This document shows positions 6,293 through 58,612 of a DNA stretch of 61,582 bases, one piece after another. Each line of letters opens with the position of its first letter. The stretch's first letter is position 1. This DNA comes from Oscillospiraceae bacterium (GTDB lineage: Bacteria; Bacillota; Clostridia; Oscillospirales; Oscillospiraceae), in contig JAITFS010000243.1 in NCBI GenBank assembly GCA_031281195.1, positions 1 through 61,582 of the forward strand, given 5' to 3'. The translations under genes and the position numbers were made by a program. The notes below the pieces were generated by a model. The model searched no databases and was not told where the DNA came from. It saw only the letters and a program-made list of their open reading frames with translations.

Positions 6293-6300
6293 TTTCTAAT

Positions 6301-7272: not shown

Positions 7273-7275
7273 ATA

Positions 7276-8244
7276 TTAACCACTCCGTTGTTTTATGAGT
7301 TTCTTTAATATTTCCGGTATAAACGTTATTATTTGTCCAATTTTATATTCGATTGTATTCCTATAATCCTGTATTTTTATTAGCTCTTTATTCTTACGAC
7401 CAATTAACATATTTTTTGAGTGGTCATAATGATAAGGACTTTTTAATGCAGTGCGATACCACAAGTTGAGAAGAAAAACCCTGTCATCACTGATTTTCCA
7501 TGGTTTTAAATGTATTAAATAATGTATAACTACCGGATTTCTTAATGCGTCTTCAACATCATCAAGTGGATATGCTTTTTCTAACTTGTTTTTAACAATT
7601 ACATAATCGAAGGGTATATTAAACTTTAATGGAATAAATGTAATACGATTATAACACACTATATTCAAAACATCCTGATCCACATGTTTATAACCTTTTG
7701 TAACGAGTTCTAAGAATCTTAGTGTTAATTTTTCGTCTCGTATAATTTTCAGATTCATAATAAGCACCGCAGCGCTTATGTATTGGTCTGGTGTAGGTAA
7801 TTCTAATGTTTTAAACCTTTTTTTATCAAGTTTTTCTTCCTTAACACCTGCTATTAAATTATTGCCAATATCAATGTTCCACAAGCTTGTTAAATCAGTG
7901 CATAACATAACATCAACGTCAAGGTATAGGCACTTGTCCAACATAGGTAATAGTTCTGGTATTAGTAAACGAAAATATGTTTCTATTGAAAAATAACTGT
8001 TAATGACCGCATTATCCAATCTGTCTCCAACTATAACAAACTCAAACTCTGTATTAGGGTATTGTAATATGAGTTTGTCAAACTTTACTGTTACTTCGTC
8101 TGGCATATTAGAACGTACAAAAAAATAAAACTTATATTGCGTATCTTCTTCTTTTGAACGCAGTGCTGAATAAACTGCTACACATGCTGGCATTGCATAA
8201 TTTTCATCAAAAGACATTACAATTGGTATTTTGTCTATTTTCAT
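7276..8244 (-). CDS. GT8-family glycosyltransferase, paralogue 3
   Basis: IPIVMSFDENYAMPACV, DVD, DQDVLN, HYLIHLKPW. The 3' end is nearly identical to paralogue 4. Confidence 0.8.
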   Translation of the reverse strand: MKIDKIPIVMSFDENYAMPACVAVYSALRSKEEDTQYKFYFFVRSNMPDEVTVKFDKLILQYPNTEFEFVIVGDRLDNAVINSYFSIETYFRLLIPELLPMLDKCLYLDVDVMLCTDLTSLWNIDIGNNLIAGVKEEKLDKKRFKTLELPTPDQYISAAVLIMNLKIIRDEKLTLRFLELVTKGYKHVDQDVLNIVCYNRITFIPLKFNIPFDYVIVKNKLEKAYPLDDVEDALRNPVVIHYLIHLKPWKISDDRVFLLNLWYRTALKSPYHYDHSKNMLIGRKNKELIKIQDYRNTIEYKIGQIITFIPEILKKLIKQRSG

Positions 8245-8247
8245 ATA

Positions 8248-9210
8248 TTAACCACTCCGTTGTTTTATGAGTTTCTTTAATATTCCCGGTATAAACGTTA
8301 TTATTTGTCCAATTTTATATTCAACTGTATTCCTATAATCCCAAATTTTTATAAGCTCTTCATTTTTGCGACCAATCAACATATTTTTTGAGTGGTCATA
8401 ATGATAAGGACTTTTTAATGCAGTGCGATACCATAAGTTGAGAAGCAAAACCCTGTCATCACTGGTTTTCCATGGCTTTAAATGTGTCACAAAATGAATT
8501 ACTTTCGGGTTTCTCAGTGCATCTTCAACTTCATCAAAAAGAAATAATTTTTCCAATTTACCCTTAGCTATTGCTTGAAGGTATGATATATTGTATTTTA
8601 ACGGTAACAATACTATACGATTATAACAAACTCTGTTTAAGATATCTTGGTCAACATACTTATACTCTTTTGTAACAAGTTCCAGAAGTTTTGGTGCTAG
8701 TTTTTCATCTCGTATTACCTTAAGATTAATTATCATTACTCCTGAGTTTACATACTGATCCGGTTTTGGTATCTCTAACTCTTTACATCGTTTTTTATCA
8801 AATTCTATTTCTTTAACACCGGCTATTATATTGTTTCCTATATTATAATTCCAAAGCTCGGTTAAATCATTACAAATAATTAAATCACAATCAAGATATA
8901 AACACTTATCTAACATTGGTAAAAGTTCTGGTATTAGTAAACGAAAATATGCTTCAATAGAATAACAATCTCTTATTTTTATTTTATTAAACTTATCACC
9001 AACTATAACAAACTCTATCTCTGTGCCCGGGTATTGTTCTATTAGTTTATTAAACTTTTCAATAACTTCTATAGGCATTCTTGAACGTACTAAAAAATAA
9101 AAAGCATATTGTGTGCTTTCTTCTTTTGAGCGTAATACTGAGTAAGAGGTTACACACGCAGGTTTTGCATAGTTCTCATTAAAAGACATTACAATTGGTA
9201 TTTTGTTCAT
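8248..9210 (-). CDS. GT8-family glycosyltransferase, paralogue 4
   Basis: IPIVMSFNENYAKPACV, DCD, NSGVMIINL, DQDILN, HFVTHLKPW. Confidence 0.8.
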   Translation of the reverse strand: MNKIPIVMSFNENYAKPACVTSYSVLRSKEESTQYAFYFLVRSRMPIEVIEKFNKLIEQYPGTEIEFVIVGDKFNKIKIRDCYSIEAYFRLLIPELLPMLDKCLYLDCDLIICNDLTELWNYNIGNNIIAGVKEIEFDKKRCKELEIPKPDQYVNSGVMIINLKVIRDEKLAPKLLELVTKEYKYVDQDILNRVCYNRIVLLPLKYNISYLQAIAKGKLEKLFLFDEVEDALRNPKVIHFVTHLKPWKTSDDRVLLLNLWYRTALKSPYHYDHSKNMLIGRKNEELIKIWDYRNTVEYKIGQIITFIPGILKKLIKQRSG

Positions 9211-9211
9211 C

Positions 9212-10126
9212 TTATTTTTTCCACAACTTCATAATTGATCTAGGAATATATGTAACTACACTTCCAATTTTATAAGCTGTAGTGTCTCTGCCGTCTTCAA
9301 CTTGTTGTATCAGAGTATCATCATAACGCCATTTTAACATGTGTTTATTATGATCATGATTATAAGGACTTTCATACGCTGCTTGATACCATAAAAACAA
9401 TAATATAGCAAAATCACTATGAATCTTCCATGGTTTTTCTTTTCCTTTATATTGTACTATAGTTGGATTTTTTAATGCATCTTCTATATCAAATGGGGGA
9501 AAATATGCATCTAATAATTTTTTCCTAGTTATAACACTATAAACCATATTATATTTTAAAGGTAGAAGTTTTACTCGATTGTAACAAACTTTATTTAAAA
9601 TATCTTGTTCAGTGGTTTTTTTTCTTTTTGTAAAAAGCTCCAGATACTGTGCTACTAGCTTCTCTTCTCTTATTAGCTTAAGGTTCATCAGAAGAACCCC
9701 TGTTTCTATATATTGATCAGAAGTTGGTAAGCCTAACGTCTTATACCGTTTTTTACTGATTTCAATATCTTTAACGCCTGCAATAAAATTGTTTCCAATT
9801 TCTATATCCCATAAGTCTGTTAAATCATCACATACAATTATATCAAAATCAAGATACAAACACTTGTCTAATCCCGGGATTATATCAGCTATCTGTAATT
9901 TATTGTAGTTTTCAGAAATTACAATATACTCTATTTGAGTTTCCGGGTATAACTCTGTTAATTCGTTAAATTTCTCAATATTGTTTTCTGACATTTTAGA
10001 TTTTACCAAAAAATAAAATGTATACTGAGTACTACTTGCTTTTGTTTGTAAAGCTGAGTATGCCGCTACACAAGCAGGCATAGCATTATTCTCTTCAAAT
10101 CCCATAACAATCGGTATTTTGTTCAT
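9212..10126 (-). CDS. GT8-like paralogue 5, degenerate (internal ~14-aa deletion; metal-ligand His replaced by Gln)
   Basis: Start moved to MNKIPIVMGF (ATG complement at 10124-10126) with a GGAGA SD 7 nt upstream. It retains DFD and EQDILN. It lacks the ..AYFRLLIPELLP.. block and reads VQYKGKEKPW where the others read H(Y/F)....KPW. Confidence 0.7.
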   Translation of the reverse strand: MNKIPIVMGFEENNAMPACVAAYSALQTKASSTQYTFYFLVKSKMSENNIEKFNELTELYPETQIEYIVISENYNKLQIADIIPGLDKCLYLDFDIIVCDDLTDLWDIEIGNNFIAGVKDIEISKKRYKTLGLPTSDQYIETGVLLMNLKLIREEKLVAQYLELFTKRKKTTEQDILNKVCYNRVKLLPLKYNMVYSVITRKKLLDAYFPPFDIEDALKNPTIVQYKGKEKPWKIHSDFAILLFLWYQAAYESPYNHDHNKHMLKWRYDDTLIQQVEDGRDTTAYKIGSVVTYIPRSIMKLWKK

Positions 10127-10153
10127 ATTTATATCTCCAAACATGACTATATT

Positions 10154-11107
10154 TTATTTTTTTATCAACTTCTTTAACAACTTCGGTAAAAATGTTATTA
10201 TTTGCCCTATTTTATATTCTATTGTGCTTCTATACTCCCATGTTTTTATGATTGTTTTGTTTCTCCGTTTATTCAATGTATACATTGAATGGTCATAATG
10301 ATAAGGACTTTTCAATGCAACACGATACCATAATACGAATAACAAAACTCTGTCATCGCTGGTGTTCCAAGGTTTCTTTTTATCTAAATAGTGTATTATT
10401 ACTGGTTTTTTTGATACATCTTCAACTTTATCTAATAGAGATATTTTTTCTATCTTATTCTTAGCCATTGAATAACTAAAAAACATATTATATTTTAAAG
10501 GTAAAAATAGTATACGGTCATAACAGACTATATTCAAGATATCTTGATCTACATATCTATAACCTTTAGTAATTAATTCCAGAAACTTTGGAGTAAGATT
10601 TTCATCTCGTATTATCTTAAGATTAATTATCATCACTCCTGAGTTTATGTACTGATCCGATGAAGGTAATTCTAGCTCTTTATATCTTTTTTTATCAAGT
10701 AATTCTTCTTTAACACCCGCTATTATATTATTGCCAATGTCTATACTCCACAAACTTGCTAAATCAGTACATACCATAACGTCAACATCAAGGTATAGAC
10801 ACTTGTCCAACATAGGTAATAGTTCTGGTATTAGTAAACGAAAATATGCTTCTCTAGGATAATAATCATTTATAGCTGCAGTATCTAATCTATCACCAAT
10901 AATAACAAACTCAATCTTAGTGTCATGATATTGTTCTACTAATTTATCAAATTTTTCAACAACTTCAAAGGGCATACATGAGCGTACTAAAAAATAAAAA
11001 GCATACTGTGTGTTTTCCGCTTTTGAACGTAATGCTGAGTAAGCTGTTACACAAGCAGGCATTGCATAGTTTTCATCAAAAGACATAACGATTGGTATTC
11101 TGCTCAT
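10154..11107 (-). CDS. GT8-family glycosyltransferase, paralogue 6
   Basis: IPIVMSFDENYAMPACV, DVD, NSGVMIINL, DQDILN, HYLDKKKPW. Confidence 0.8.
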   Translation of the reverse strand: MSRIPIVMSFDENYAMPACVTAYSALRSKAENTQYAFYFLVRSCMPFEVVEKFDKLVEQYHDTKIEFVIIGDRLDTAAINDYYPREAYFRLLIPELLPMLDKCLYLDVDVMVCTDLASLWSIDIGNNIIAGVKEELLDKKRYKELELPSSDQYINSGVMIINLKIIRDENLTPKFLELITKGYRYVDQDILNIVCYDRILFLPLKYNMFFSYSMAKNKIEKISLLDKVEDVSKKPVIIHYLDKKKPWNTSDDRVLLFVLWYRVALKSPYHYDHSMYTLNKRRNKTIIKTWEYRSTIEYKIGQIITFLPKLLKKLIKK

Positions 11108-12069
11108 TTTAATCCTTTAAATAACTTCATTAATACTCTTGGTATAAAAGTAATTATACTTCCAATTTTATAAGACAATGTATTTCTAGCATCACTCGCT
11201 GTTTGTATTAATGTGTTATCATGACGACCAATTAGTATATTTTGAGCAATATGGTCGTATTGATATGGACTCTCAAGTGCTGCTTGATACCACAAATGTA
11301 ATAAAAAAGCGTAATCATCATGTATATTCCATGGTTTTTCTCTGCCTATATAATGGATTATTACAGGATTACTTATCGCGTCTTCAATTTCACTTTGTAA
11401 GTAATTAGTTTTTAGCAATTTGTTATTTGTGATTTCACATAATGGTATATTATACTTTAAAGGAAGGTATTTAATACGTTTATTACATTCTTTGTTTAAT
11501 ATATCTTGGTCATGGTATTCGTAACCTTGTGTAACAAGTTTTAGAAATCTTGATGTTAGGTTCTCGTCTCTAATAGCTTTAAGATTAAATATCAATACTC
11601 CTGCGCTTATATATTGATCCGGTGAAGAGATTCCAACTGCTCTATATCGTTTTTTACCACATTCTTTATTTTTCACACCGGCTAATAAGTTATTTCCTAT
11701 TTCATAATTCCATAGCTCTGTTAAATCATCACAAATAATTAAATCAACATCAAGATATAAGCATTTATCTAATTTAGGGAATAGCTCAGGTATCAATAAG
11801 CGGTAATATGATTCTTTTGATATATGTCTGCTGATAAATGCATCATCTAATCTTTCTCCAACTATAGCAAACTCAATCTCAGTACCGGGATACAGTTCAA
11901 CAAATTTATCAAATTTTTCAATCACATCAATTGGCATACTAGTACGTACCAAAAAATAGAAAGCATATAGTGTTTTCTCTTTTTTTGACCTTAAAGCAGA
12001 ATACACAGTAACGCATGCCGGCATTGCATATTTTTCATCAAAAGCCATAACAATTGGTATTATGCCCAT
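11104..12069 (-). CDS. GT8-family glycosyltransferase, paralogue 7 (first gene of the array)
   Basis: IPIVMAFDEKYAMPACV, DVD, DQDILN, HYIGREKPW. Start set at MGIIPIV (12067-12069) because the longer track ORF would begin upstream of the predicted promoter and transcription start. Confidence 0.75.
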   Translation of the reverse strand: MGIIPIVMAFDEKYAMPACVTVYSALRSKKEKTLYAFYFLVRTSMPIDVIEKFDKFVELYPGTEIEFAIVGERLDDAFISRHISKESYYRLLIPELFPKLDKCLYLDVDLIICDDLTELWNYEIGNNLLAGVKNKECGKKRYRAVGISSPDQYISAGVLIFNLKAIRDENLTSRFLKLVTQGYEYHDQDILNKECNKRIKYLPLKYNIPLCEITNNKLLKTNYLQSEIEDAISNPVIIHYIGREKPWNIHDDYAFLLHLWYQAALESPYQYDHIAQNILIGRHDNTLIQTASDARNTLSYKIGSIITFIPRVLMKLFKGLK

Positions 12070-12088
12070 AAAACTTTCCATTTCACAA

Positions 12089-12117
12089 TAGACTTTATCA
12101 GAGTATAGCATTATAAT
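12089..12117 (+). promoter_or_regulatory. Candidate promoter of the plus-strand GT2/ABC operon: -35 TAGACT (12089-12094), 17 nt, -10 TATAAT (12112-12117)
   Basis: Read directly. It sits 45 nt upstream of the TTG start at 12163. Confidence 0.4.
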
Positions 12118-13251: not shown

Positions 13252-14901
13252 GTGAAAGCTTTAAAAATCGGTATCTTAATACGTGATATAGATAAACTAG
13301 ATAATTGGGAGTATAGAATTCTTAAACATATTATAGAACATCCAAATCTAGAGTTATCATTATTTATAAAAGATGGACGAGATAAAAAACGTTCTTTTAA
13401 GACTCGTGTAAGAAACGATTTGTTCACAATTAAAGTATTTGCTAATGCATTATGGAAAATACAAATGAAGCTTGAGTCAACTATATATAGAAAAAAGCTA
13501 ACCGTTAATGCTGATGAAATAATAGAAAAGACAAAAAGCATAGAAACAATTTATCTTTTTCCTGAACGAAAAGGATTCTTGGATATTTTTTCAAAGGACG
13601 ATGCAGAAATTGTTAATGAGTATAATCTTGATATAATTCTGCGACACGAGTTTGGTATAATACGTGGAGATATCTTACATGCTTCAAAATACGGTATTTG
13701 GAGCTACCACCACGCTGACAATGCGATAAACCGTGGACTCCCTGCTGGTTTCTGGGAAATTGTAAATAATGAACCATGCTGTGGTGTTACACTTCAACAA
13801 TTAACTCCTGAGCTTGACGGAGGGCTGATCATAGACAAAGCCTGGTTTAATTGGCACTGGGCATTTACAAAAAATAATAACATGTTGCTTGAAAAATCTG
13901 TTGTGCTGCTATTTAAAAATATTGATATGTTACTTAAACACGGAAAAATAGAAATAATAAAATCATTGACATATTACAATAAACTCTATAAAAAACCAAA
14001 TCTGAAATATATGATATTTTATATGCTTAAGTTTTACTATAATACATTAAAACATATAGTTAACTCATTATTACCGTCAAAAGCTATGGGTCGGTGGACA
14101 TTGTTTTTTGGAAAAGGAATCTTTCTTGAATCTGTTTTGTTTAGATTAAAACCAGTTTTAATACCAAAAAAAGTATTTTGGGCAGACCCATTTTTATATG
14201 AATATGATAATCAGCTTTATGTGTTTTTTGAAAATTTCTCATATAAAACAAAAAGAGGTAAAATCTCAGTTGGTAAGGTTGTAGAGAGTAATAAAAATAA
14301 CTATTCGGTAGTTGATATTCAAGATGTTCTTGATTTTGATTACCATTTATCTTATCCACAAGTTGTAAATGAAGATGGTCAGATATTCCTAATACCTGAA
14401 ACAAACCAAAACAAACGACTTGAAGTATATCAATGTTTAAGCTTTCCCGATAAATGGGAACTATATTCTACAGCGTTTGAAGGAGAAAAAGTAGTTGATA
14501 CAACTTATTTTTGTGATAAAAACAATGATAGATGGCTATTTATTAATAAAGGTTGGGCAGATGAGGCTGAATTACATATATATAAAATCGATAATTTAAA
14601 ACTTAATAGTATAATACCACATGAACAAAATCCTGTTCTTATAGATTGTAGAAAAGGTAGAAATGGTGGAGAGATTTTTAAGTATGACAATGAGTATTAT
14701 CGACCCAGTCAAATAATCACCCATGGTATATATGGAAAAGGTTTGCAAATTAATAAAATAAAAAAATTAACACTATGGGATTTTGAAGATGAACCGGTAA
14801 TAACTATCGAACCCAATTTTTCAAAAAAATTAATGGGTATGCACCACTTACATCAATATGGCAATAATTTCACTTTTGACGCTAATTTTAAGAGACTATG
14901 A
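13252..14901 (+). CDS. Two-domain protein: N-terminal formyltransferase-fold-like domain plus a C-terminal beta-rich domain (possibly GINT1-N-like); function unknown
   Basis: GIWSYHHADNAINRGLPAGFWEIVNNEPCCGVTLQQLTPELDGGLIID matches the H..(x)RG..P..W...G....G.T.....LD.G pattern of the Fmt/PurN fold, but without the canonical N-x-H-x-SLLP. The C-terminal half begins FWADPFLYEYDNQLYVFFENFSY. GTG start with GGAGA SD. Confidence 0.45.
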   Translation: MKALKIGILIRDIDKLDNWEYRILKHIIEHPNLELSLFIKDGRDKKRSFKTRVRNDLFTIKVFANALWKIQMKLESTIYRKKLTVNADEIIEKTKSIETIYLFPERKGFLDIFSKDDAEIVNEYNLDIILRHEFGIIRGDILHASKYGIWSYHHADNAINRGLPAGFWEIVNNEPCCGVTLQQLTPELDGGLIIDKAWFNWHWAFTKNNNMLLEKSVVLLFKNIDMLLKHGKIEIIKSLTYYNKLYKKPNLKYMIFYMLKFYYNTLKHIVNSLLPSKAMGRWTLFFGKGIFLESVLFRLKPVLIPKKVFWADPFLYEYDNQLYVFFENFSYKTKRGKISVGKVVESNKNNYSVVDIQDVLDFDYHLSYPQVVNEDGQIFLIPETNQNKRLEVYQCLSFPDKWELYSTAFEGEKVVDTTYFCDKNNDRWLFINKGWADEAELHIYKIDNLKLNSIIPHEQNPVLIDCRKGRNGGEIFKYDNEYYRPSQIITHGIYGKGLQINKIKKLTLWDFEDEPVITIEPNFSKKLMGMHHLHQYGNNFTFDANFKRL

Positions 14902-49312: not shown

Positions 49313-51115
49313 TTATCCCCACACCCCTGAATGTGCATAAAAAACATCCGGTATATCAGATAATTCTGTAATATACAGTATTTCGTGTAGCTCTATTGAC
49401 TCTCCAAATACTGTAAATGGTATGTTATATTCTCCAAAGAGAATAGGAACTTCATAGTTTTCTGCTCGAATTTTTGCTAAAACATCAATAGCCGATGTGT
49501 TTGTCCAATTTTCATAATAATAATTAATTATATTACGAACATCACCATTCCAAGCAGGGTTGTAAGAAACAATTGCAGAACCATCAGCATACGGAGGTTT
49601 TACCATTAATATTGGATTATACGTTTGAGTAGGCCAAAAGTTTCCGAAATTACGTTGCATTAACTCAAAGTTATGTATGTAATGAACATGCTCAACCCAC
49701 ATTTCCGGAGAAAAAAACGTTCCATGGTCAGCAACGAGTATAATTAAACTATTATCATAAACATCAAGCTCATGCATAACATTAAATAAACGTTCAAGCT
49801 GATTAAAAAAGAAGTACATTTCATTTATGTATAACTCCTCTGAGATTCCATGCCATGAAAAGGTGTTAACATCTGTATTGATTTCGCCATCTCTGGAAAC
49901 AAGTACAGGAGTATGTGTACCATAATTCCAAAAATACATTAACTTTTTTTCATCGTTCCCTAGCCTGAGATTGTCGATTAGAGCCTCAGTTATTGCTATG
50001 CTCTCTTTAGTGTCATCCACTACAAGCGCAAACTCTGTATCTAACCAAGCACCGGATTCTACTACTTCATTTTCTGTAATAAACCTAGATAAAAAACCTA
50101 AAAATGGTACTCGCATCCAATATCCGGTAAGCCTCGCAACTGATGCTGTTGCGACTGTGTTATATAGTGTTAATTCTACCTCTGGAGAAACTCTACCGAC
50201 ATAAGGGAACTCACCATTTGTTGTAGTTTCAAATAATCTGCCTAATAAATTAACTCTGAAACCAACCTCTTGCATATCTGACATAAAGGAATTTGGTAAT
50301 GAATGTGGATTTTGATCTTCCCATAACAAATCATCAGATGGGTAAAAAACACCGGATTGAATAGCATTATTGTTAAAACGTGTAAATGGAAATGATGAAA
50401 ATGCTCTAGTAAACATAGTAAAACCATTAAAGGTTTCATAAAAATGCGGATTTTCCATAAATGTCCGTTCAACCAACGAACCTTGTGTCATATCTAAAAC
50501 GATAACTACTATATTTTGCTCCGTACTAAATGCTGTTACCGATTCAAAAGCTTCTTTGTTAAGCTCTGAGTTTATGTTATTGCTCATATTAAACATTGTA
50601 TTAGCGTTAGTAATTACAGAAAAAACTGAAAATAGTGCAATAGGGATAATTAAAAAACGTAATTGTTTTCTAAATAAAATCATCAACCCAATTATTAGCA
50701 GATAAAAAGCTCCGTTGCGTGCAAGTGGCCATAAACTGTCAGTAATTCTTATCAACTGCTCTCTGCCATCTAACATTCCTGCACTCATAGGGAATATAAA
50801 AGCATTAATAAAAATTAGAATAACAGCAGCTGATAAGATAACCTCAAGATACTTATAATGCGTTCGTAATAAAAACACAATTGTGCTAAATACTAATGAT
50901 ATAGCCAGTGTTACCAACGCTATTGGGATTAGCATATTAAGTTGAAATACTTCACCTGCTGCTATAGCAATTATTAGTGGGCAACATATCAATACAATAA
51001 CAAAAATCGTATATACAGTTATGGAACTGTGTGCAAATTGCAGACCACGCTTTTGATCAAAAGTATCAGTTGCCATTATATTTCTAAAAAATTTTTTAAC
51101 TTTTTCTTTAAACAC
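49313..51115 (-). CDS. Membrane-anchored alkaline-phosphatase-superfamily transferase (LtaS/GacH/EptA-like phospho-alcohol transferase)
   Basis: About 5 N-terminal TM helices, then NIVVIVLDMTQG and SLIILVADHGT (metal-ligand D / DHG motifs of the sulfatase/AP fold). GTG start with GGAGGA SD. Confidence 0.6.
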   Translation of the reverse strand: MFKEKVKKFFRNIMATDTFDQKRGLQFAHSSITVYTIFVIVLICCPLIIAIAAGEVFQLNMLIPIALVTLAISLVFSTIVFLLRTHYKYLEVILSAAVILIFINAFIFPMSAGMLDGREQLIRITDSLWPLARNGAFYLLIIGLMILFRKQLRFLIIPIALFSVFSVITNANTMFNMSNNINSELNKEAFESVTAFSTEQNIVVIVLDMTQGSLVERTFMENPHFYETFNGFTMFTRAFSSFPFTRFNNNAIQSGVFYPSDDLLWEDQNPHSLPNSFMSDMQEVGFRVNLLGRLFETTTNGEFPYVGRVSPEVELTLYNTVATASVARLTGYWMRVPFLGFLSRFITENEVVESGAWLDTEFALVVDDTKESIAITEALIDNLRLGNDEKKLMYFWNYGTHTPVLVSRDGEINTDVNTFSWHGISEELYINEMYFFFNQLERLFNVMHELDVYDNSLIILVADHGTFFSPEMWVEHVHYIHNFELMQRNFGNFWPTQTYNPILMVKPPYADGSAIVSYNPAWNGDVRNIINYYYENWTNTSAIDVLAKIRAENYEVPILFGEYNIPFTVFGESIELHEILYITELSDIPDVFYAHSGVWG

Positions 51116-51137
51116 CAGGATTTCCTCCGCTTTTTAT

Positions 51138-51166
51138 ATTATAACATAAAACTACATATATTGCAT
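51138..51166 (-). promoter_or_regulatory. Candidate promoter of the 33-kb minus-strand block: extended -10 TGtTATAAT (complement of 51138-51146), 17-nt spacer, weak -35 ATGCAA (complement of 51161-51166)
   Basis: Read directly on the reverse complement. The predicted start lies ~18 nt upstream of the GTG at 51115. Confidence 0.5.
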
Positions 51167-51189
51167 TTTCTTAATTTTTTGCGTATAAT
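51161..51189 (+). promoter_or_regulatory. Promoter of the small-membrane-protein / YidC::TagF operon: -35 TTGCAT (51161-51166), 17 nt, -10 TATAAT (51184-51189)
   Basis: Near-consensus hexamers with optimal spacing, read directly. Confidence 0.6.
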
Positions 51190-51264
51190 TAAGCTAATGT
51201 CAGTTTGAAACACCTCACTATAGGCTTAGGTGAAAACAATTACAGTATAAAAAGGGGAATTGTT

Positions 51265-51552
51265 TTGAAAATTTTTAAATACATAGCATATATTTTTATG
51301 TTTACTCTTACATTTATGTTATTAACAACAAAAGCTCACGCATATATAGATCCTGCAACAACTGCAATGCTTACGCAGATATTAGCAGGTGTACTTATTA
51401 CTCTGGGTGTAGTTTTTGGAGTTTTTCGTCAGAAAATAATAATGTTTTTTAAGAATATAAGTGTTAAGCGTACAAAGAAAAAGATAGAACGTGAAAATGC
51501 AAAAACACAAAACAAACCAAAAAATGATACAGGAGAAAAGGATACTAAGTAG
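51265..51552 (+). CDS. Small membrane protein (signal-like TM + second TM, Lys-rich tail), unknown function
   Basis: Start moved to the in-frame TTG at 51265, with AAGGGGA SD 7 nt upstream. Sequence: (M)KIFKYIAYIFMFTLTFMLLTTKAHAYIDPATTAMLTQILAGVLITLGVVF... Its stop overlaps the GTG of the next gene (TAGTG). Confidence 0.5.
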   Translation: MKIFKYIAYIFMFTLTFMLLTTKAHAYIDPATTAMLTQILAGVLITLGVVFGVFRQKIIMFFKNISVKRTKKKIERENAKTQNKPKNDTGEKDTK

Positions 51553-53435
51553 TGAACATTATTGATTTAGTATTTGGCTCATTTTTTGGATTTTTGATGC
51601 GTCTTTGCTATGATATAACTAACAATTTCGGGTGGTCAATAGTGATATTTTCAGTATTGATTAAGCTTGTTTTGTTTCCAATTTCTTTGATTTCGCAAAA
51701 AAACTCAATTATCATGGTAAAAATCAAACCAATGCTAAATGACCTGCAAGCACGTTATGCAAGTGAACCTGATGTATTACTGCAAGAGCAAAAAGCATTG
51801 TTTAAAAAAGAAAAATACAGTGCAATTAAAGCATTATTACCCTTACTTGTTCAAATCCCGATAATTATTGGGGTTATTAGTGTTGTAAACAATCCGGTGA
51901 GGCATCTCGGGGAGAATGTAAATGCAGATTTCTTTGGCGTTGATATGTTTGCTATGCCTGAGAATCTTTTTATCCCTGCGCTGGCAATAATTTCAACAAT
52001 TCTGTTATGTGTTATACAAAATACCTTTAATGTTATATCAAAAGAGCAAGGTTTTTTTGGTAAATGGGGGGTTATGCTGTTATTAACAGTTTTTACCGGG
52101 TGGTTTGTATTTGTTGTACCAACAGGAGTAGGGCTTTACTGGACATATAGCAACTTAACAGGAATTCTTGTTTTAGCAGTATGTAATATAATCTATAATC
52201 CAAAAAAGTACATAGATTACGAACACCGTACTATAAAACCAAAGCTTACCAAAGTAGAGAAAGAGGAAAAGCGTAGAATACGAAAAATCGAAAAAGAACG
52301 TGAAAAAGCTGATATGCAACGTTTTTTTAGTGTTGAGAAGGAAGTTGTTTTCTTTTCTGAATCAAAAGGATTTATAAAATATTTCGAGCGTTTTATAGAC
52401 TATATAATTAACAACTCTGATATAACAGTTCATTATTTAACAGCAGATATAAATGACCCTGTTCTGGAGTTAAATAAATCTCAGTTTGAAGCGTATTATT
52501 GCTCGGACAAAGGGCTTATCACAACATTTATGAAAATGGATGCAGCTATTGTTGTTATGACGCTGGCTGACCTTAATGTTTATCATTATAAACGCTCTAT
52601 AGTACGTAAGGATATTGAATATATATATATTGATCATGGGTTGGGTAGTTGTAATCTTTTGCTGCGAAAAGGTGCTTTAAATCATTATGATACGATTTTT
52701 TGTAATTGTAAGGAATATAACGAGGAAATACGAGCAACAGAAAGTGTTTATAACCTTAAAGAAAAAAATCTTGTTAATGTTGGATTTGGGCTTTTAGATA
52801 CACTAATTGAAAAATATGAAAAAGAAAAAAGTGATAAATTAGAAACAGATAAACCTTATGTATTAATAGCTCCTTCGTGGCAAAGGGATAATATAATAGA
52901 GATTTGTTTATCTCCGATTTTGGATGCTATAAGTAAACTTGATGTAAAGATAGTTTTACGGCCACATCCTGAGTTTGTTAAACGTTTTGTTGGAAAAATG
53001 CAATCATTATATTCTCAATACAGTGATTTAATAAAAACGGGAGTGCTTGATATACAAACTGATTTTTCATCAAACTCAACTGTATACAATGCCGACTTAG
53101 TTATAACTGATTGGTCGAGCATAGCTGTGGAATATTCACTGACTACAAAAAAACCAACACTTTTTATCAACACTCCGATGAAAATAATGAACCCCGAGTG
53201 GCAAAAAATAGATGTAGAACCAATGGATTTTACGATACGAAATATTATTGGGATTTCGTTAGATATTGATAAACTTGATGATGTAGCATCTATAACTCAA
53301 AAGCTGCTTGATAGTAAAGATACTTACAAAGCAGCTATTGAAGATTATATGTCGGAACATTTATATAATGTTGGTACAACCGCAAGCGTTGGCGGAGGTT
53401 ATATTATTGATCGAGTTCTTTCCTTGCGTCCTTAA
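51552..53435 (+). CDS. Fusion protein: YidC/Oxa1-type membrane insertase domain + TagB/TagF-type CDP-alcohol (glycerophospho)transferase domain
   Basis: YidC part: NFGWSIVIFSVLIKLVLFPISL, KPMLNDLQARY, LLPLLVQIPIIIG, GVGLYWTYSNLTGIL. Basic linker: KEEKRRIRKIEKEREK. TagF part: YVLIAPSWQRDN, VLRPHPEF, DLVITDWSSIAVEYSLTTKKPTLFI. Confidence 0.7.
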   Translation: MNIIDLVFGSFFGFLMRLCYDITNNFGWSIVIFSVLIKLVLFPISLISQKNSIIMVKIKPMLNDLQARYASEPDVLLQEQKALFKKEKYSAIKALLPLLVQIPIIIGVISVVNNPVRHLGENVNADFFGVDMFAMPENLFIPALAIISTILLCVIQNTFNVISKEQGFFGKWGVMLLLTVFTGWFVFVVPTGVGLYWTYSNLTGILVLAVCNIIYNPKKYIDYEHRTIKPKLTKVEKEEKRRIRKIEKEREKADMQRFFSVEKEVVFFSESKGFIKYFERFIDYIINNSDITVHYLTADINDPVLELNKSQFEAYYCSDKGLITTFMKMDAAIVVMTLADLNVYHYKRSIVRKDIEYIYIDHGLGSCNLLLRKGALNHYDTIFCNCKEYNEEIRATESVYNLKEKNLVNVGFGLLDTLIEKYEKEKSDKLETDKPYVLIAPSWQRDNIIEICLSPILDAISKLDVKIVLRPHPEFVKRFVGKMQSLYSQYSDLIKTGVLDIQTDFSSNSTVYNADLVITDWSSIAVEYSLTTKKPTLFINTPMKIMNPEWQKIDVEPMDFTIRNIIGISLDIDKLDDVASITQKLLDSKDTYKAAIEDYMSEHLYNVGTTASVGGGYIIDRVLSLRP

Positions 53436-54963
53436 AGAAGCTGAAAACGATTAACAAAATTACAAGTCCTATTGGAAATGCTGCTATAATTGCTACACTT
53501 TGTAAGCTTTGTAATGCACTGTTTGAGAAGATTAGTCCAATCGGGAGGAGAATGAGTAGTACTGCCCAGAAAGCACGTACTTTTTTGTTTGGTTCTTCGC
53601 CCGGTTCAAGTTTTTTATGTGAATAACATGAGATAACCATAGTTAGTGCATCGAATGTTGTTGCATAAAAGATTATCATGTTTATTACCAGTATTATTAA
53701 TGCTAACGAGGGTAGTGGTAAGGTTTCGAATATCCTGATAACAACAGCGGAAATAGCTTCCGGTGTCCAGTCAGAGTTTGCTATTGCACCTGCTGAATCC
53801 AGACCATGTTTCATTTGTTGGCTAAGCCCATAGTTTCCAAGTATTATAAAGGATGTAAATGTTCCTGCAAGCCCCCAGCAATAAGCACCAAGAACGGTAT
53901 TTTTTAACGTTCTGCCTTTACTAATCATTCCGATAAAGAACGGAGTTGCTATACACCAAGCCATCCAGTATGCCCAGTAGAAAATTGTCCAGCTTTGCAC
54001 AAATCCTGTTCCTGCCTCCCAACCTGACTCTCTTAGCGGATCGGTGCGTGTAGCAAGCCCGATGAAGTTTTGAATCAGATTTCCTATCGATTCGACACCG
54101 GTTTCGATAATGTAACGAGTTTCGCCACCTAAGAATAGGAAGTAGAATAAAAACGCAAAAAACAGATAGACTGAAAAGCTCGCTAGCTTTGATATACCAC
54201 CCATGCCTGTGAGGACTGCTATTGTGTATACAATTGCGATGAGTAGCAGGATACATATAGTAAGTCCGTTGGAAACACTAATACCAAATACATGAGCTAA
54301 AGCACCTGCAAGCAGTGGTGTAGCCAGTGAAAAAGTTGTTGCTGTGCCTGCGATTAATGAGAAAATTGCAACCATGTCAATGATTCTACCGAGTATTCCA
54401 TCAACTTTATTACCAAGTATCGGGCGGCATGCTTCAGAAAACTTTTGTTTTGATCTTCCGCGTACATGCAGCATGAAACCAAATGCTGCCGCTAATACTA
54501 TGTAAAATGACCATGCTATCGGACCCCAATGAAAAAGTGGAAATGTTGGTGACCATAGCTGCATTTCACCCATTGATTCTACGTATGGTTCTGTAGCGTA
54601 CATCGCCCACTCACTAAGTGAGTAAAACAGAATGTCTGCTGCCATTGTTGCTGTAAAAATCATTGCACCCCAAGCAAATGGTTTGTATTGTGGTTTCTCG
54701 TCAGCAGCACCAAGCTTAATTTTCCCATAACGGGAAAACGCTATATACATGGTTGCTCCAAATGCAAACAGACCCATCAATATATAATAGATACCGATGT
54801 CATTTCCAAGCACTGACCGTATTTCGCCAAGCATGTTTTCAGAGCCGTCAGGAAACATTACAAATACTATTGCCAGCACTAAAACACCAATTAGTGGAAT
54901 AATAATTGAAATCCAATCAATTTCACCACCATTCTTTTTCTTTTCTACACTTTCTTTACTCAT
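53404..54963 (-). CDS. BCCT-family transporter (betaine/carnitine/choline)
   Basis: Contains the BCCT signature WTIFYWAYWMAWCIATPFFIGMISKGRT; 519 aa, 12 TM. Confidence 0.85.
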   Translation of the reverse strand: MSKESVEKKKNGGEIDWISIIIPLIGVLVLAIVFVMFPDGSENMLGEIRSVLGNDIGIYYILMGLFAFGATMYIAFSRYGKIKLGAADEKPQYKPFAWGAMIFTATMAADILFYSLSEWAMYATEPYVESMGEMQLWSPTFPLFHWGPIAWSFYIVLAAAFGFMLHVRGRSKQKFSEACRPILGNKVDGILGRIIDMVAIFSLIAGTATTFSLATPLLAGALAHVFGISVSNGLTICILLLIAIVYTIAVLTGMGGISKLASFSVYLFFAFLFYFLFLGGETRYIIETGVESIGNLIQNFIGLATRTDPLRESGWEAGTGFVQSWTIFYWAYWMAWCIATPFFIGMISKGRTLKNTVLGAYCWGLAGTFTSFIILGNYGLSQQMKHGLDSAGAIANSDWTPEAISAVVIRIFETLPLPSLALIILVINMIIFYATTFDALTMVISCYSHKKLEPGEEPNKKVRAFWAVLLILLPIGLIFSNSALQSLQSVAIIAAFPIGLVILLIVFSFFKDARKELDQ

Positions 54964-55005: not shown

Positions 55006-56790
55006 TTATGCTAATCTTTGCTTCACAATGTTGAAATAATCCTTTGCATATCTATATTGCCAAAGCGAATATTCGCCAAAATCGATACCGAAATCACTTT
55101 TATATTCGCACCAGTTACTCCATAAAAGCCCGCACATAGCAACATAAGCATAGATTTTTGTTCTGGTTTCATCAGAGCATTTATCATCGAAATAGCTATC
55201 TATTAGTGCATCAACATGTTGCTTTTCATACATTGAATAGACAGCAAACATAGCAATGTCGACGTGTGGGTCTTGCATTGCAGAGTATTCCCAATCTATT
55301 AGTTTTATCTGAGTGGTTTTGTTGTTTTCTATAAAAATGAAGTTGTCAGGAACAGCATCTATATGGGTAAGTGTCCATTTTGTATTTAATGATTTGATAT
55401 ATTCCTGCAAGCTTAGAATATTACCTTTTGTTTCATTATAATCGCGAAAACATGAAAAATCTCTAAGCCATAAGCTTTCGTAGTACTCGATTCGCTCAAA
55501 TATATCAAATGTGTGGTCAACACTTAGATTCATGTTATGAAAATCTTTTAGCTTTTTCATACAGGCTTTTACATCGGTGCTGTTTAACGGGTCACAAACT
55601 CTTGCGTTATCAATAAACATCGTGATTTTATATCCTGTTTTCGGGTCAATGTATATAACATTATCGCAAAGTCCAAGTGGTTCAATGATTTTGTAAACAA
55701 TGTACTCCTGCTTTCTGTCTATCATCAAGTCTGTACCTTCACCCGGAATACGCATAATATATTTTGTATTGTCATGTACAAATGTAAATGAGTGATTTGT
55801 CATACCAATTTTAATAGGTTTTATATCATGAATTTTATCCTCAGAAACATTAAATATTTTTGCAATAGTTTTCATAATCTTACTATTAGAAGAAGTATTG
55901 TAGGAGGTGTCAAATTGGCGTAGCTCTTCAAGATTTTCAAACTCGTGTACATTATCAGTTTGTTTATTCGCAATCATTGTTATAGTTTTTATATAATCTT
56001 TTAGTATTTGCTCCCAATACAAATCATCTGTACCGGGGCGATTGTAGTATTCATCAAGTTTTGTGCGGAAAAATGTTGATAAAGTATCATCAAAGTACGC
56101 AGGGCCAATTAGTACCCACGAGTTTTGCCCGCCAATTGATATTGATTTTATTTTGTCTGATGCACTTAAAGAAACACACCACTCGTTTGTTGCACCCTCT
56201 GCATAAATGCTTGAATACCAACTATATGGCTCATAGATATTAAAAATATTATCTCGAATCCAAAAATCAGACATCAACACATAAGTATTACCAAGTTTTT
56301 CACGAATGATATGTAAACTGCTTAGATTATTTTTTGTTGCATACTCTGGGTTAAATACCAATGTTACATCATACTTATCTATTAGATAATCAAATGCTTC
56401 TTTTTTATAACCAACCACAATGGTTATATCTCTAATTGAACGGGCGTGTAAATGCTCGATTTGTCGCTCTATCATCGGTTGACCGTATACCTCGAGCAAA
56501 CCTTTTGGAACATCATACGTAAGCGGTACAAAACGTGAACCAAAACCGGCAGCAAGTATTATTGCATTTTTTACTTTATAATCACCAAGAAAAGCAAGTC
56601 CCTTTTCGTTTACAATCCACTTTTTATCGTTTAACAAACAACGCTTGATATATTGCTTTGCTTGACATTCGCTGATGATATTATTAACTAATCCCAATGA
56701 AAGCATAGTTGCTGACGCTACCTCACGCTGGGTTGCTTCCGGATAGCTAAGTAGGTATCTGCACACTAAAACTATATGCTCGTTTTTCAT
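55006..56790 (-). CDS. Tripartite fusion: N-terminal winged-HTH-like segment + LicC-type CTP:phosphocholine cytidylyltransferase + LicA-type choline kinase
   Basis: AIILAAGFGSRFVPLTYDVPKGLLEVYGQPMIERQIEHL...IVVGYKKEAFDYLIDKYDVTLVFNPEYATKNNLSSL is colinear with pneumococcal LicC. The kinase part has LTHIDAVPDNFIF and LIDWEYSAMQDPHVDIA. The first ~70 aa resemble an HTH (TQREVASATMLSLGLVNNIISE). Confidence 0.8.
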   Translation of the reverse strand: MKNEHIVLVCRYLLSYPEATQREVASATMLSLGLVNNIISECQAKQYIKRCLLNDKKWIVNEKGLAFLGDYKVKNAIILAAGFGSRFVPLTYDVPKGLLEVYGQPMIERQIEHLHARSIRDITIVVGYKKEAFDYLIDKYDVTLVFNPEYATKNNLSSLHIIREKLGNTYVLMSDFWIRDNIFNIYEPYSWYSSIYAEGATNEWCVSLSASDKIKSISIGGQNSWVLIGPAYFDDTLSTFFRTKLDEYYNRPGTDDLYWEQILKDYIKTITMIANKQTDNVHEFENLEELRQFDTSYNTSSNSKIMKTIAKIFNVSEDKIHDIKPIKIGMTNHSFTFVHDNTKYIMRIPGEGTDLMIDRKQEYIVYKIIEPLGLCDNVIYIDPKTGYKITMFIDNARVCDPLNSTDVKACMKKLKDFHNMNLSVDHTFDIFERIEYYESLWLRDFSCFRDYNETKGNILSLQEYIKSLNTKWTLTHIDAVPDNFIFIENNKTTQIKLIDWEYSAMQDPHVDIAMFAVYSMYEKQHVDALIDSYFDDKCSDETRTKIYAYVAMCGLLWSNWCEYKSDFGIDFGEYSLWQYRYAKDYFNIVKQRLA

Positions 56791-57403: not shown

Positions 57404-58552
57404 TTAACCGTGATTTCTTAAATACATGTGGAATATATTTTCTGCATTGTTCCTTCGTATGTTCAAACTGTTAAATGATATTCTACCTTCATTAATCCCT
57501 GTATTAAATGGAGAGTTAAGTCGAGCTTCAAGAACCCCGGGGTCAAGAATATTGTTTGTATCTCCAAATCCTGCCGATGGACGTAGGTTCATTGAACAAA
57601 ACAGTTCTGCATAAGACCTGGCTCCTTCCGGACCTGTTGTATGCGTTGGATGATTTACAAATTGCATATAATTACGTTCTGATGTATGCTGCAGCTCATA
57701 AAACATGTAATTAATCTGAACAAAAAGCACGTGGTCAAGAAAATCAATCGGGTGGATATGACGTGGATTTGTACAAACCCCGTCTAGGTGTTTATTCATC
57801 TCTGCTTCAAAGGCTTCTCTTGATATTCCATTCGCCCACATATAGTTCTCTACTAAAGTTCGACGTCCAAATGACCATTGCATAAGTCCGATACCAATTC
57901 TAGTTGATACCTCTTGCTGGAATGGACAAAGTGTACTTCCTGCTTCAGATTGTAAATTACCAATTATCCCTGCTATATGAGCAGGACGATCAGAAATACC
58001 GGGAAAATGTGCTCTTACCATGTGATTCCAAACTCTGACTATCATTGTATCACCTGCTAATGTATTTGCAGGTGGTGGAACTGTACCAACATTTATTCCA
58101 TACGATTCACAAATCTCACCAAATTCCACTGAGTTAATAAACCCAACAAAAACATCATATCTTGACATATTTGTTTTCATTCTTTCCAGCCATGCGTTCC
58201 AACCAAATGCTTCAGGTTTACGCCCTAAAATAGCTCTGTACAATATTTCTAAATATTGCTCATTAGAAAGATTTCTATTAAGAAACTCTGTACTATAAAA
58301 GAACCCATGTGCCATACGAGCTCCATCAGTTTCTCCTCTTTTAAGTCTATTAGTCCACTCACCAAACCCATACGCTTCAGGTCTACGTTCTAAAACAAGT
58401 AAATAAAGTCTTTCAACAAATCCATTAATACCAGCTTCATTAATATGTACCTCGTCTTCTTGTGCATAGCCCACAAAACCATTAATTGCAAACGAAAATA
58501 CCATAGTAATCAAAATTAATATCGATATGATTGATTTTTTTAATCTCTTCAT
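57404..58552 (-). CDS. Secreted protein: signal peptide + two DUF4214 repeats + C-terminal phage-tail-lysozyme-like (Phage_lysozyme2-type) domain
   Basis: Start set at MKRLKKSIISILILITMVFSFAING (ATG complement at 58550-58552). DUF4214 repeats: VERLYLLVLERRPEAYGFGEWTNRL and LEILYRAILGRKPEAFGWNAWLERM. Lysozyme-like part: IAGIIGNLQSEAG...GIGLMQWSFGRR. Confidence 0.6.
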   Translation of the reverse strand: MKRLKKSIISILILITMVFSFAINGFVGYAQEDEVHINEAGINGFVERLYLLVLERRPEAYGFGEWTNRLKRGETDGARMAHGFFYSTEFLNRNLSNEQYLEILYRAILGRKPEAFGWNAWLERMKTNMSRYDVFVGFINSVEFGEICESYGINVGTVPPPANTLAGDTMIVRVWNHMVRAHFPGISDRPAHIAGIIGNLQSEAGSTLCPFQQEVSTRIGIGLMQWSFGRRTLVENYMWANGISREAFEAEMNKHLDGVCTNPRHIHPIDFLDHVLFVQINYMFYELQHTSERNYMQFVNHPTHTTGPEGARSYAELFCSMNLRPSAGFGDTNNILDPGVLEARLNSPFNTGINEGRISFNSLNIRRNNAENIFHMYLRNHG

Positions 58553-58583
58553 AAAACCCTGCCTTTCTTTACACCGGTAAGGA

Positions 58584-58612
58584 ATTATAGCATTTGTTAC
58601 AACAAATGTCAA
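58584..58612 (-). promoter_or_regulatory. Consensus sigma-A promoter of the lysozyme-like gene: -35 TTGACA (complement of 58607-58612), 17 nt, -10 TATAAT (complement of 58584-58589)
   Basis: Both hexamers are perfect with optimal spacing, read directly. This places the track's 20-codon N-terminal extension outside the transcript. Confidence 0.65.

Follow-up and report, generated by a model that had tools for sequence, protein, structure and literature searches.

The DNA analysed here, referred to as the window, is the whole stretch of 61,582 nucleotides from position 1 to 61,582 of contig JAITFS010000243.1 (Oscillospiraceae bacterium, assembly GCA_031281195.1), read on the forward strand. At 51552-53435 on the + strand it contains a single uninterrupted open reading frame (ORF) of 627 amino acids with a GTG start, which joins a YidC/Oxa1 insertase domain to a TagF-like phosphotransferase domain and which will be referred to as the fusion. 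With the genes of a small membrane protein and of an LtaS-like membrane enzyme it forms a conserved module, whose composition and possible role are the subject of this analysis. A preliminary description, made from the sequence without database searches, had pointed out the fusion, and all the peptide landmarks that it quoted were found in the translation. The overlap that it reported with the small membrane protein gene is also there: within TAGTG, the stop codon of the upstream ORF (TAG, 51550-51552) and the GTG of the fusion, which begins at 51552, share one base. The fusion is composed of three parts (TM, transmembrane):

51552..52211, + strand: YidC/Oxa1 domain, residues 1-220, with an N-terminal amphipathic helix, TM1 carrying K38, the C1 hairpin and TM2-TM5

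52212..52328, + strand: Lys/Arg/Glu-rich linker, residues 221-259, predicted to be a single long helix on the cytoplasmic side (AlphaFold2 helix 234-259)

52329..53435, + strand: TagF-like (PF04464) GT-B phosphotransferase domain, residues 260-627 and the stop codon, assigned by Pfam, fold and motifs

Both domains are recognised well above threshold. Pfam places 60KD_IMP (PF02096) at residues 26-208 (103.9 bits for a cut-off of 35) and Glyphos_transf (PF04464) at residues 392-539, profile positions 145-292 (43.1 bits for a cut-off of 22.1). The N-terminal 225 residues or so, which the preliminary description had called YidC-like, also match the NCBIfam model TIGR03592 (yidC_oxa1_cterm) with 94.3 bits for a cut-off of 84.3. 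An AlphaFold2 model built on an alignment of 28 family members (mean predicted local distance difference test 89.4, predicted TM-score 0.72) shows five TM helices and a hairpin, then the long charged helix 234-259, then a two-lobe domain of strands and helices. Searched with Foldseek, this model gives a YidC fold for the N-terminal part and a GT-B fold for the C-terminal part. Promoter and terminator scans of 50950-53650 returned matches no commoner than in shuffled sequence.

The same domain architecture is found far beyond this genome. A search of 5.8 billion proteins gave 460 matches. All of the 120 homolog clusters listed are full length, with 40-71% identity, and nearly all of them carry both Pfam domains; a scan of one genome per species found the fusion in at least 598 species. 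With a profile of the C-terminal domain, 802 clusters (at 50% identity) were reached at E<=1e-30 among 1.84 billion representatives. The fusion is no rarity but a member of a widespread family. It is present in isolates (Roseburia inulinivorans DSM 16841, Lachnospira eligens, Bittarella massiliensis, Lachnospiraceae bacterium COE1 and Eubacterium sp. AM49-13BH) and in metagenome-assembled genomes (MAGs) of many Oscillospiraceae, Lachnospiraceae, Coriobacteriales, Eggerthellaceae and Bifidobacteriaceae. The closest relatives among the matches listed, at 70% identity, belong to Oscillospiraceae MAGs. Named homologs among these matches are called only "membrane protein insertase YidC", and hundreds of genome records with just this name conceal an enzyme. 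Contigs L039, L048, L049 and L012 are binned as Caulobacteraceae, Barnesiella, Paludibacteraceae or Fibrobacter while their proteins are 39-55% identical to the Clostridia versions; mis-binning or horizontal transfer could account for these bins.

For the enzyme part, Foldseek returned GT-B enzymes, with the TagF-like capsule polymerases 8QOY and 8A0C among the top matches, and the AlphaFold2 model alternates strands and helices over residues 265-571. PF04464, a profile of 367 positions, covers just 148 residues of the window protein; close relatives match it at positions 10-293 and 96-349 and together span 10-349. TagF enzymes use two conserved catalytic histidines, one per lobe. Two histidines of the fusion, H362 (DHG, nt 52635-52637) and H472 (RPHPE, nt 52965-52967), are invariant in the 28 fused proteins as well as in 72 stand-alone relatives sharing 26-42% identity, and the motifs APSWQ and TDWSS are found in the same part. 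A broad subfamily profile, stand-alone relatives included, matches Staphylococcus aureus TarL (8VA1, E=2.7e-8), with APSW/APTF, RPHP/KMHP and TDWSG/SDYSS in register. H472 aligns with the histidine of the TarL KMHP, and H362, which lies outside the aligned stretch, would be its counterpart in the other lobe by position and lobe. The GT-B fold is shared with TagF, TarL, 8A0C/8QOY and the TagF-like FtaD, the aligned motifs with TarL, and the two invariant histidines are putative equivalents of the catalytic pair; a donor activated by cytidine diphosphate (CDP) is expected.

Beside the fusion stand the other components of the module:

49313..51115, - strand: LtaS-like membrane enzyme of the alkaline phosphatase superfamily, 600 amino acids, with an N-terminal multi-TM region and an extracytoplasmic catalytic domain

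51116..51264, no strand: AT-rich intergenic region, recognised from the sequence, between the LtaS-like gene and the divergent operon of the small protein and the fusion

51265..51552, + strand: small membrane protein, 95 amino acids from TTG 51265, third conserved component of the module

To establish which neighbours recur we counted genes within 10 kb of the fusion in 82 non-duplicate loci. Neighbours were assigned by per-domain hidden Markov models (HMMs); single-linkage clustering of whole ORFs merges all of them through multi-domain proteins. A homolog of the small protein occurs in 61 of the 82 loci (adjacent to the fusion in 51), a sulfatase-like (LtaS-like) catalytic domain also in 61 (adjacent in 40), one or the other in 70, and a homolog of LicC or LicA in 55. 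In six distant homologs a membrane protein of 550-730 amino acids annotated "Sulfatase (weak)" is present each time, its gene usually overlapping the stop codon of the fusion, with LicC/LicA genes near and in some cases BCCT as well; L001, L008, L011 and others have a BCCT gene too. The module persists in unrelated surroundings, as at L003 (43% identity), where it lies among genes for RecO, a serine dehydratase and a helicase, and both L003 and L007 carry it outside any polysaccharide cluster.

The LtaS-like gene, transcribed away from the operon of the small protein and the fusion, is the key partner and had gone unmentioned in the preliminary description. By itself the window protein has no Pfam match and a weak arylsulfatase match, its N-terminal 200 residues being hydrophobic. 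A profile of 18 partner proteins finds its best match in LtaS (S. aureus 2W5Q, E=2.2e-13, and also the Listeria and Bacillus subtilis proteins). D207, H400, D462 and H463 are invariant and T244 near-invariant (window numbering), which we take to be the metal and nucleophile pattern of the alkaline phosphatase superfamily. The partners share about 17-20% identity and some relatives reach PF00884; an HMM of the N-terminal TM part found nothing in the neighbourhood ORFs, this segment being too divergent. The gene at 49313-51115 belongs to the LtaS-like partner family, and its product is predicted to be a transferase acting outside. LtaS, GacH and EptA take glycerol-phosphate or phosphoethanolamine off a membrane phospholipid and hand it on to a surface polymer. 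The partner resembles them in its N-terminal multi-TM region followed by an extracytoplasmic alkaline-phosphatase-superfamily domain with Asp, Thr, His and Asp-His. It differs from them in that it needs or contains a TM module with a YIDP motif and is genetically tied to a cytoplasmic CDP-dependent enzyme.

This TM module is the small protein. Its TTG at 51265 is preceded by AAAGGGGAA, and a longer frame of 115 amino acids from 51205 is also present. The protein has a signal-peptide-like N-terminus ending in AHA, the motif YIDPATTAMLTQ, a TM helix and a basic tail. About 60 aligned homologs share this layout, with an N-terminus ending in AxA, a near-invariant AYIDP(A/S)TTxYxIQ, a TM helix and a basic tail. 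A homolog may have its own gene, placed upstream of the fusion or downstream of it, and in about 25 loci the small module forms the N-terminal 80 residues or so of the LtaS-like partner. In 17 loci, most of them from Lachnospiraceae, a Peptidase_S26 (signal peptidase I) gene neighbours the genes of the fusion and of the small protein; these loci include L028, L033, L035, L037, L049, L060, L063, L066, L068, L070, L073, L074 and L077, as well as the following example:

L075:12179-12670, - strand: Peptidase_S26 gene

This gene and the conserved AxA-YIDP junction, which has the look of a cleavage site, fit a predicted cleavage of the small protein between AxA and Y. An apparent fusion of a small YIDP-motif protein to a LicA-type kinase (371 amino acids, L061:11897-13012, + strand) was seen by custom HMMs alone.

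The components are joined naturally in several ways. Among the best 149 of the 802 clusters, with Pfam confirmation, 95 have the TagF-like domain alone (about 360-400 amino acids, some being fragments), 35 are YidC-TagF, 8 LtaS-like-YidC-TagF, 4 YidC-TagF-small-LtaS-like, 3 YidC-TagF-LtaS-like, 3 small-TagF (P0122, P0216, P0237) and 1 YidC-TagF-choline kinase (P0121, 905 amino acids). Single chains joining LtaS-like, YidC and TagF-like domains, which account for 15 of these clusters, thus exist in both orders, with 1168-1545 amino acids (P0128, P0130, P0133 and P0129 among the examples). In a further chain of this kind, the uninterrupted ORF of 1257 amino acids at L049:8123-11896 (+ strand), the extracytoplasmic catalytic domain of the LtaS-like part leads directly into the N-terminal helix of YidC. 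This arrangement fits a coherent predicted topology, with an N-out, C-in YidC and a cytoplasmic TagF-like domain. Stand-alone TagF-like relatives (L089-L092) sit with a nucleotidyltransferase, a protein of 67-75 amino acids with AxAY(I/L)(D/E)P and a sulfatase-like membrane protein.

On the other side of the fusion, the window carries genes that point to the donor:

53404..54963, - strand: BCCT-family transporter, probable choline importer (PF02028, 420 bits), convergent with the fusion

55006..56790, - strand: fusion of a helix-turn-helix (HTH) domain, a LicC-type nucleotidyltransferase and a LicA-type choline kinase, 594 amino acids (PF01633, PF00483, PF12804)

The HTH-LicC-LicA protein would supply CDP-choline. 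Among the window ORFs of at least 120 amino acids a Pfam scan found neither TagD/CTP_transf_like, TarI or TarJ nor LicD (PF04991), which bears out the earlier remark that no TagD gene is present and that CDP-choline is the one CDP-alcohol pathway nearby. The 3' ends of the fusion (+) and of the BCCT gene (-) overlap by 32 nt (53404-53435).

In the fetched flanks of the 82 loci, choline-specific genes are present in 27 and an activation gene of any kind in 57. A cytidylyltransferase-phosphoenolpyruvate mutase fusion and a thiamine diphosphate-dependent decarboxylase occur in 9 loci, and a class-V aminotransferase in 8. Taken together, these genes make up the pathway of 2-aminoethylphosphonate (AEP) with nucleotide activation, and they stand in place of the Lic genes or beside them. 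In 16 loci, a protein of 600-620 amino acids joining a LicC-type nucleotidyltransferase to a class I/II aminotransferase fold is encoded next to the fusion, for instance at the following positions:

L075:8146-9957: nucleotidyltransferase-aminotransferase fusion

L028:12802-14661: nucleotidyltransferase-aminotransferase fusion

L079:11919-13727: nucleotidyltransferase-aminotransferase fusion

L015:8142-10001: nucleotidyltransferase-aminotransferase fusion

This enzyme may activate an amino-alcohol phosphate other than phosphocholine. A TagD-like gene is present in 2 of the 82 loci. At L006:1660-2778, in a Fibrobacter-labelled MAG, a CTP_transf_like (TagD/ECT-like) gene of 147 amino acids and an S-adenosylmethionine methyltransferase gene precede the fusion and no Lic genes are present, a context that hints at yet another donor. 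LicD (PF04991) is not among the families common to at least two of 127 neighbouring ORFs scanned with Pfam, and a regular expression for the LicD motif, used without a positive control, matched nothing in the neighbourhoods.

Compared with known TagF-like enzymes, the subfamily of the fusion is thus linked to genes for CDP-choline and CMP-AEP and not to TagD/TarIJ, and its fusion partners are YidC, a small TM protein or an LtaS-like enzyme. The TagB/TagF-type label given to the enzyme in the preliminary description holds for family membership; in place of the CDP-glycerol chemistry that it implies, the context speaks for CDP-choline, CMP-AEP and related zwitterionic donors. The TagF-like FtaD of Clostridioides difficile uses CDP-N-methylthreonine (10.64898/2026.02.12.704994, preprint), and zwitterionic donors that are not alditols are therefore within reach of the family. 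PntC-type enzymes make CMP-AEP for surface tailoring (PMC6697681), and an inventory of phosphonate clusters mentions "multiple sulfatases" beside AEP genes in Selenomonas (PMC8942020); these papers name LicD-like enzymes and sulfatases near AEP genes, not YidC-TagF. In the literature searched, which covered few subscription journals so that earlier work is possible, we found no description of the fusion or of the module. What we describe is an undescribed and widespread combination of familiar families.

In our view, the role of the YidC part is the most interesting question. Its AlphaFold2 helices span residues 26-69, 73-86, 91-113, 140-159, 168-188 and 191-214. Foldseek matches it to Bacillus halodurans YidC2 (3WO6, TM-score 0.75 on the target, root mean square deviation 3.5 A), and a profile search of the PDB returns YidC alone, 5Y83 at 5.5e-18. 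As the preliminary description had noticed, the basic residue of TM1 is a lysine in place of arginine: K38 in the window protein, with K in 24 and R in 4 of the 28 family members. Besides K/R38, residues Q101, Q156, W172, W197 and N201 are invariant in the 28, and the polar residues N157 (26/28) and N160 (27/28) are nearly so. Mean pairwise identity is 0.53 for the YidC part against 0.55 for the enzyme part, with 0.53-0.60 in the TM helices and 0.56 in the C1 hairpin; the linker, at 0.42, is the lowest of all segments except the loops. None of 17 NCBIfam YidC equivalog models passed (21-66 bits for cut-offs of 276-1094), the SpoIIIJ model giving 51 bits for a cut-off of 377. Neither the window nor any of 88 loci contained rnpA or jag, and there is a single YidC-type ORF per locus. 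The YidC part is thus a member of the YidC superfamily by domain, fold and TM1 charge, but not an equivalog of the housekeeping YidC.

With the YidC/Oxa1 insertases (3WO6; SpoIIIJ/MisCB of B. subtilis) the fusion shares the five-TM fold, the cytoplasmic C1 hairpin, a basic residue of TM1 facing the hydrophilic groove and a cytoplasmic C-terminus. In contrast to them it has no lipoprotein signal or N-terminal TM, mostly K and not R in TM1, and a C-terminal enzyme of 370 amino acids; its distribution is patchy and, at the loci examined, it lies in an enzyme module and not beside rnpA/jag. The suggestion that the YidC fold here serves the phosphotransferase rather than housekeeping insertion gains indirect support from the failure at every NCBIfam equivalog cut-off and from the enzyme module alongside in the 82 loci. 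As for the proposed "membrane dock", a dock alone seems insufficient, for in some relatives a small protein with a single TM anchors the enzyme, while the YidC part equals the enzyme in conservation and has invariant polar residues in its groove. A passive anchor appears unlikely in view of this strong constraint, kept up in two phyla, and of the single-helix anchors.

These data lead us to propose, as the best of the explanations considered though with somewhat less than even confidence, that the 627-residue protein works at the inner face as a subunit of a conserved relay, which would decorate a surface glycopolymer with phosphocholine. We are more confident of a narrower statement: the protein is probably the phosphotransferase subunit, dependent on CDP-choline, of a conserved module that also comprises an LtaS-like enzyme and the small protein. 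In the proposed relay, choline would be imported by the BCCT transporter and CDP-choline made by the LicA/LicC fusion, as their annotation suggests. The cytoplasmic TagF-like domain, with its two invariant histidines, would then place the phosphocholine of CDP-choline on a hydroxyl group of an acceptor in the membrane that is probably a lipid or glycolipid. With no LicD or TagD among the window ORFs scanned, and LicD being no recurrent neighbour, this domain is the only candidate user of CDP-choline. The YidC domain would keep the enzyme at the membrane and, in what is the least certain step, its conserved hydrophilic groove might let the intermediate's zwitterionic head group through to the outer leaflet. 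The speculation in the preliminary description that the groove might handle the polar head of the lipid-linked substrate is to our mind the most interesting of the readings. Outside, by analogy with LtaS, GacH and EptA, the LtaS-like enzyme and the YIDP-motif TM protein would move the phospho-head group from the lipid donor to the final acceptor. In other genomes the same machine would work with genes for CMP-AEP or for the activation of another amino-alcohol phosphate, and the alternative donor genes would therefore make the family a general system of zwitterionic head-group decoration.

A bolder proposal, which we regard as possible though on balance unlikely, is that the YidC/Oxa1 fold was recruited as a dedicated translocator of a zwitterionic phospho-head group (phosphocholine, AEP or phosphoethanolamine-like), carried by a lipid or by the YIDP-motif microprotein, between the cytoplasmic CDP-dependent synthase and the extracellular LtaS-like transferase. 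For the YidC step of the relay, MprF, in which a lysyl-phosphatidylglycerol synthase is fused to its own flippase, is comparable in logic only: there too a cytoplasmic head-group enzyme is combined with a polytopic membrane domain moving the modified lipid outward. MprF is not homologous to the fusion, its domain order is reversed in function, and the transport role of the fusion is a proposed one. The step would also be in keeping with the lipid scrambling described for this family: Escherichia coli YidC scrambles glycerophospholipids in vitro, and MisCB of B. subtilis does so in silico (10.1101/2023.09.01.555937).

Several points weigh against the relay or its translocation step. In 25 of the 82 loci no activation gene lies in the fetched flank. 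To our knowledge, lipids of the phosphatidylcholine type generally need no dedicated protein to cross bacterial membranes. Members of the same TagF-like subfamily, with the same partners, exist without YidC (95/149; L089-L092), so that a YidC in cis is dispensable for the chemistry and any translocation can go otherwise. The enzyme part is a divergent branch of PF04464, because a narrow profile of the C-terminal domain matches no PDB entry. Finally, what has been observed is the fold, the domains, the gene linkage, their conservation and the natural fusions; the donor, the acceptor, the lipid intermediate, any translocation and the end product of the relay are themselves predictions.

The alternative that survives best takes the YidC part as no more than an anchor on which the small protein and the LtaS-like partner dock, with nothing passing through the groove. 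The TagF-like domain would phosphocholinate a lipid-linked glycan precursor in the cytoplasm, as LicD-like enzymes do, the transporter of the cluster would export the product and the LtaS-like enzyme would carry out a separate step outside. Several points speak for this. TagF and TagB generally work on polymers carried by a lipid at the inner face, and the window, as a large glycopolymer cluster, also encodes an ABC exporter, GtrA, DUF2142 and numerous glycosyltransferases. Enzyme versions without YidC or with a small-TM anchor exist, and fusions in every order suggest one physical complex, for which a scaffold would account. We nevertheless judge it unlikely. Across Bacillota and Actinomycetota, TM helices at 53-60% identity and invariant polar groove residues are more than one would expect of a passive anchor, and the module is also found outside polysaccharide clusters (L003, L007). 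Moreover, multi-TM enzymes of the LtaS/EptA/GacH type generally draw on a lipid donor, and a mere scaffold supplies none.

Alternatively, the YidC part could be a dedicated insertase for the small protein, for the N-out polytopic LtaS-like partner or for both, the fusion merely bringing assembly and activity to the same place. That the protein retains every hallmark of YidC, among them the groove charge and the C1 hairpin (identity 0.56), is in line with this, as is the resemblance of the small protein to a classical YidC client (short, with a TM segment or two and very little to translocate). The S26 signal peptidase gene of 17 loci and the basic linker, likened in the preliminary description to the ribosome-binding tails of YidC2/Oxa1, go the same way. 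However, YidC-less modules get by with the housekeeping machinery, and a globular domain of 370 amino acids right behind the tail would be expected to block ribosome docking. A permanent fusion to the supposed client (LtaS-like-YidC-TagF) is also unlike a catalytic insertase, which releases its clients. This alternative is in our opinion distinctly improbable.

Still less probable is a classical teichoic-acid enzyme, that is a TagB/TagF-type primase or polymerase using CDP-glycerol or CDP-ribitol and anchored by YidC by chance. It would agree with PF04464 membership, with the profile match to TarL 8VA1 and with the TagD-like gene of 147 amino acids (CTP_transf_like) upstream of the fusion in the Fibrobacter-labelled locus. 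But TagD, TarI and TarJ are missing among the window ORFs scanned. The activation genes that recur are those of LicC/LicA, of the AEP pathway and of the nucleotidyltransferase-aminotransferase fusion, with TagD seen in 2 loci of the 82. Choline kinase is moreover found fused directly to YidC-TagF, and the enzyme domain is far from characterised TagF entries. As to an artefact, in which a missed stop or a frameshift would join two genes, we found nothing in its favour and give it practically no chance, since the architecture is kept at full length and 40-71% identity in at least 120 clusters and in genomes of at least 598 species, isolates included, the alignment runs unbroken through the linker and the AlphaFold2 model is confident throughout; a frameshift, a missed stop or an assembly error is thus effectively ruled out.

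If the proposed relay is right, its significance lies first in the surface decoration. Surface phosphocholine and AEP are sensed by host innate immunity (C-reactive protein and natural anti-phosphocholine antibodies). In Streptococcus pneumoniae, the lic locus provides choline uptake, the LicA kinase and the LicC cytidylyltransferase, which feed surface phosphocholine. We know of the LicD route as the one well-known bacterial route to such decoration. The module differs from that route in being without LicD, in the window and among its recurrent neighbours, and in implying an outside LtaS-like step; it would give the abundant gut Clostridia a second and widespread way, independent of LicD, of placing phosphocholine on their surface. 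Its presence in cultured human-gut Lachnospiraceae (R. inulinivorans, L. eligens), in Oscillospiraceae and in Coriobacteriia makes it genetically testable. Were the YidC part a translocator, this would be the first natural insertase groove serving the traffic of envelope lipids or glycopolymers and not protein insertion, and a constrained YidC placed between an inner-face synthase and an outer-face transferase may be a natural experiment on the claim that YidC/Oxa1 proteins move lipids.

The window as a whole is a very large glycopolymer locus, with many GT2, GT4 and GT8 glycosyltransferases, sugar-nucleotide enzymes, an ABC exporter, DUF2142, GtrA and RmlB/RmlD. Three further observations concern this locus. 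Seven tandem paralogous GT8 (Glyco_transf_8) genes, coding for 310-335 amino acids each, follow one another head to tail at 5324-12111 (- strand), an unusually long paralog array within one glycan locus. A protein of 402 amino acids with two DUF4214 repeats and a phage-tail-lysozyme domain is encoded inside the locus at 57404-58612 (- strand). Finally, a protein of 549 amino acids at 13252-14901 (+ strand) matches GINT1_N with 114 bits; this domain is the N-terminal domain of a eukaryote-type glucosamine inositolphosphorylceramide transferase and was unexpected in a bacterial glycan cluster.

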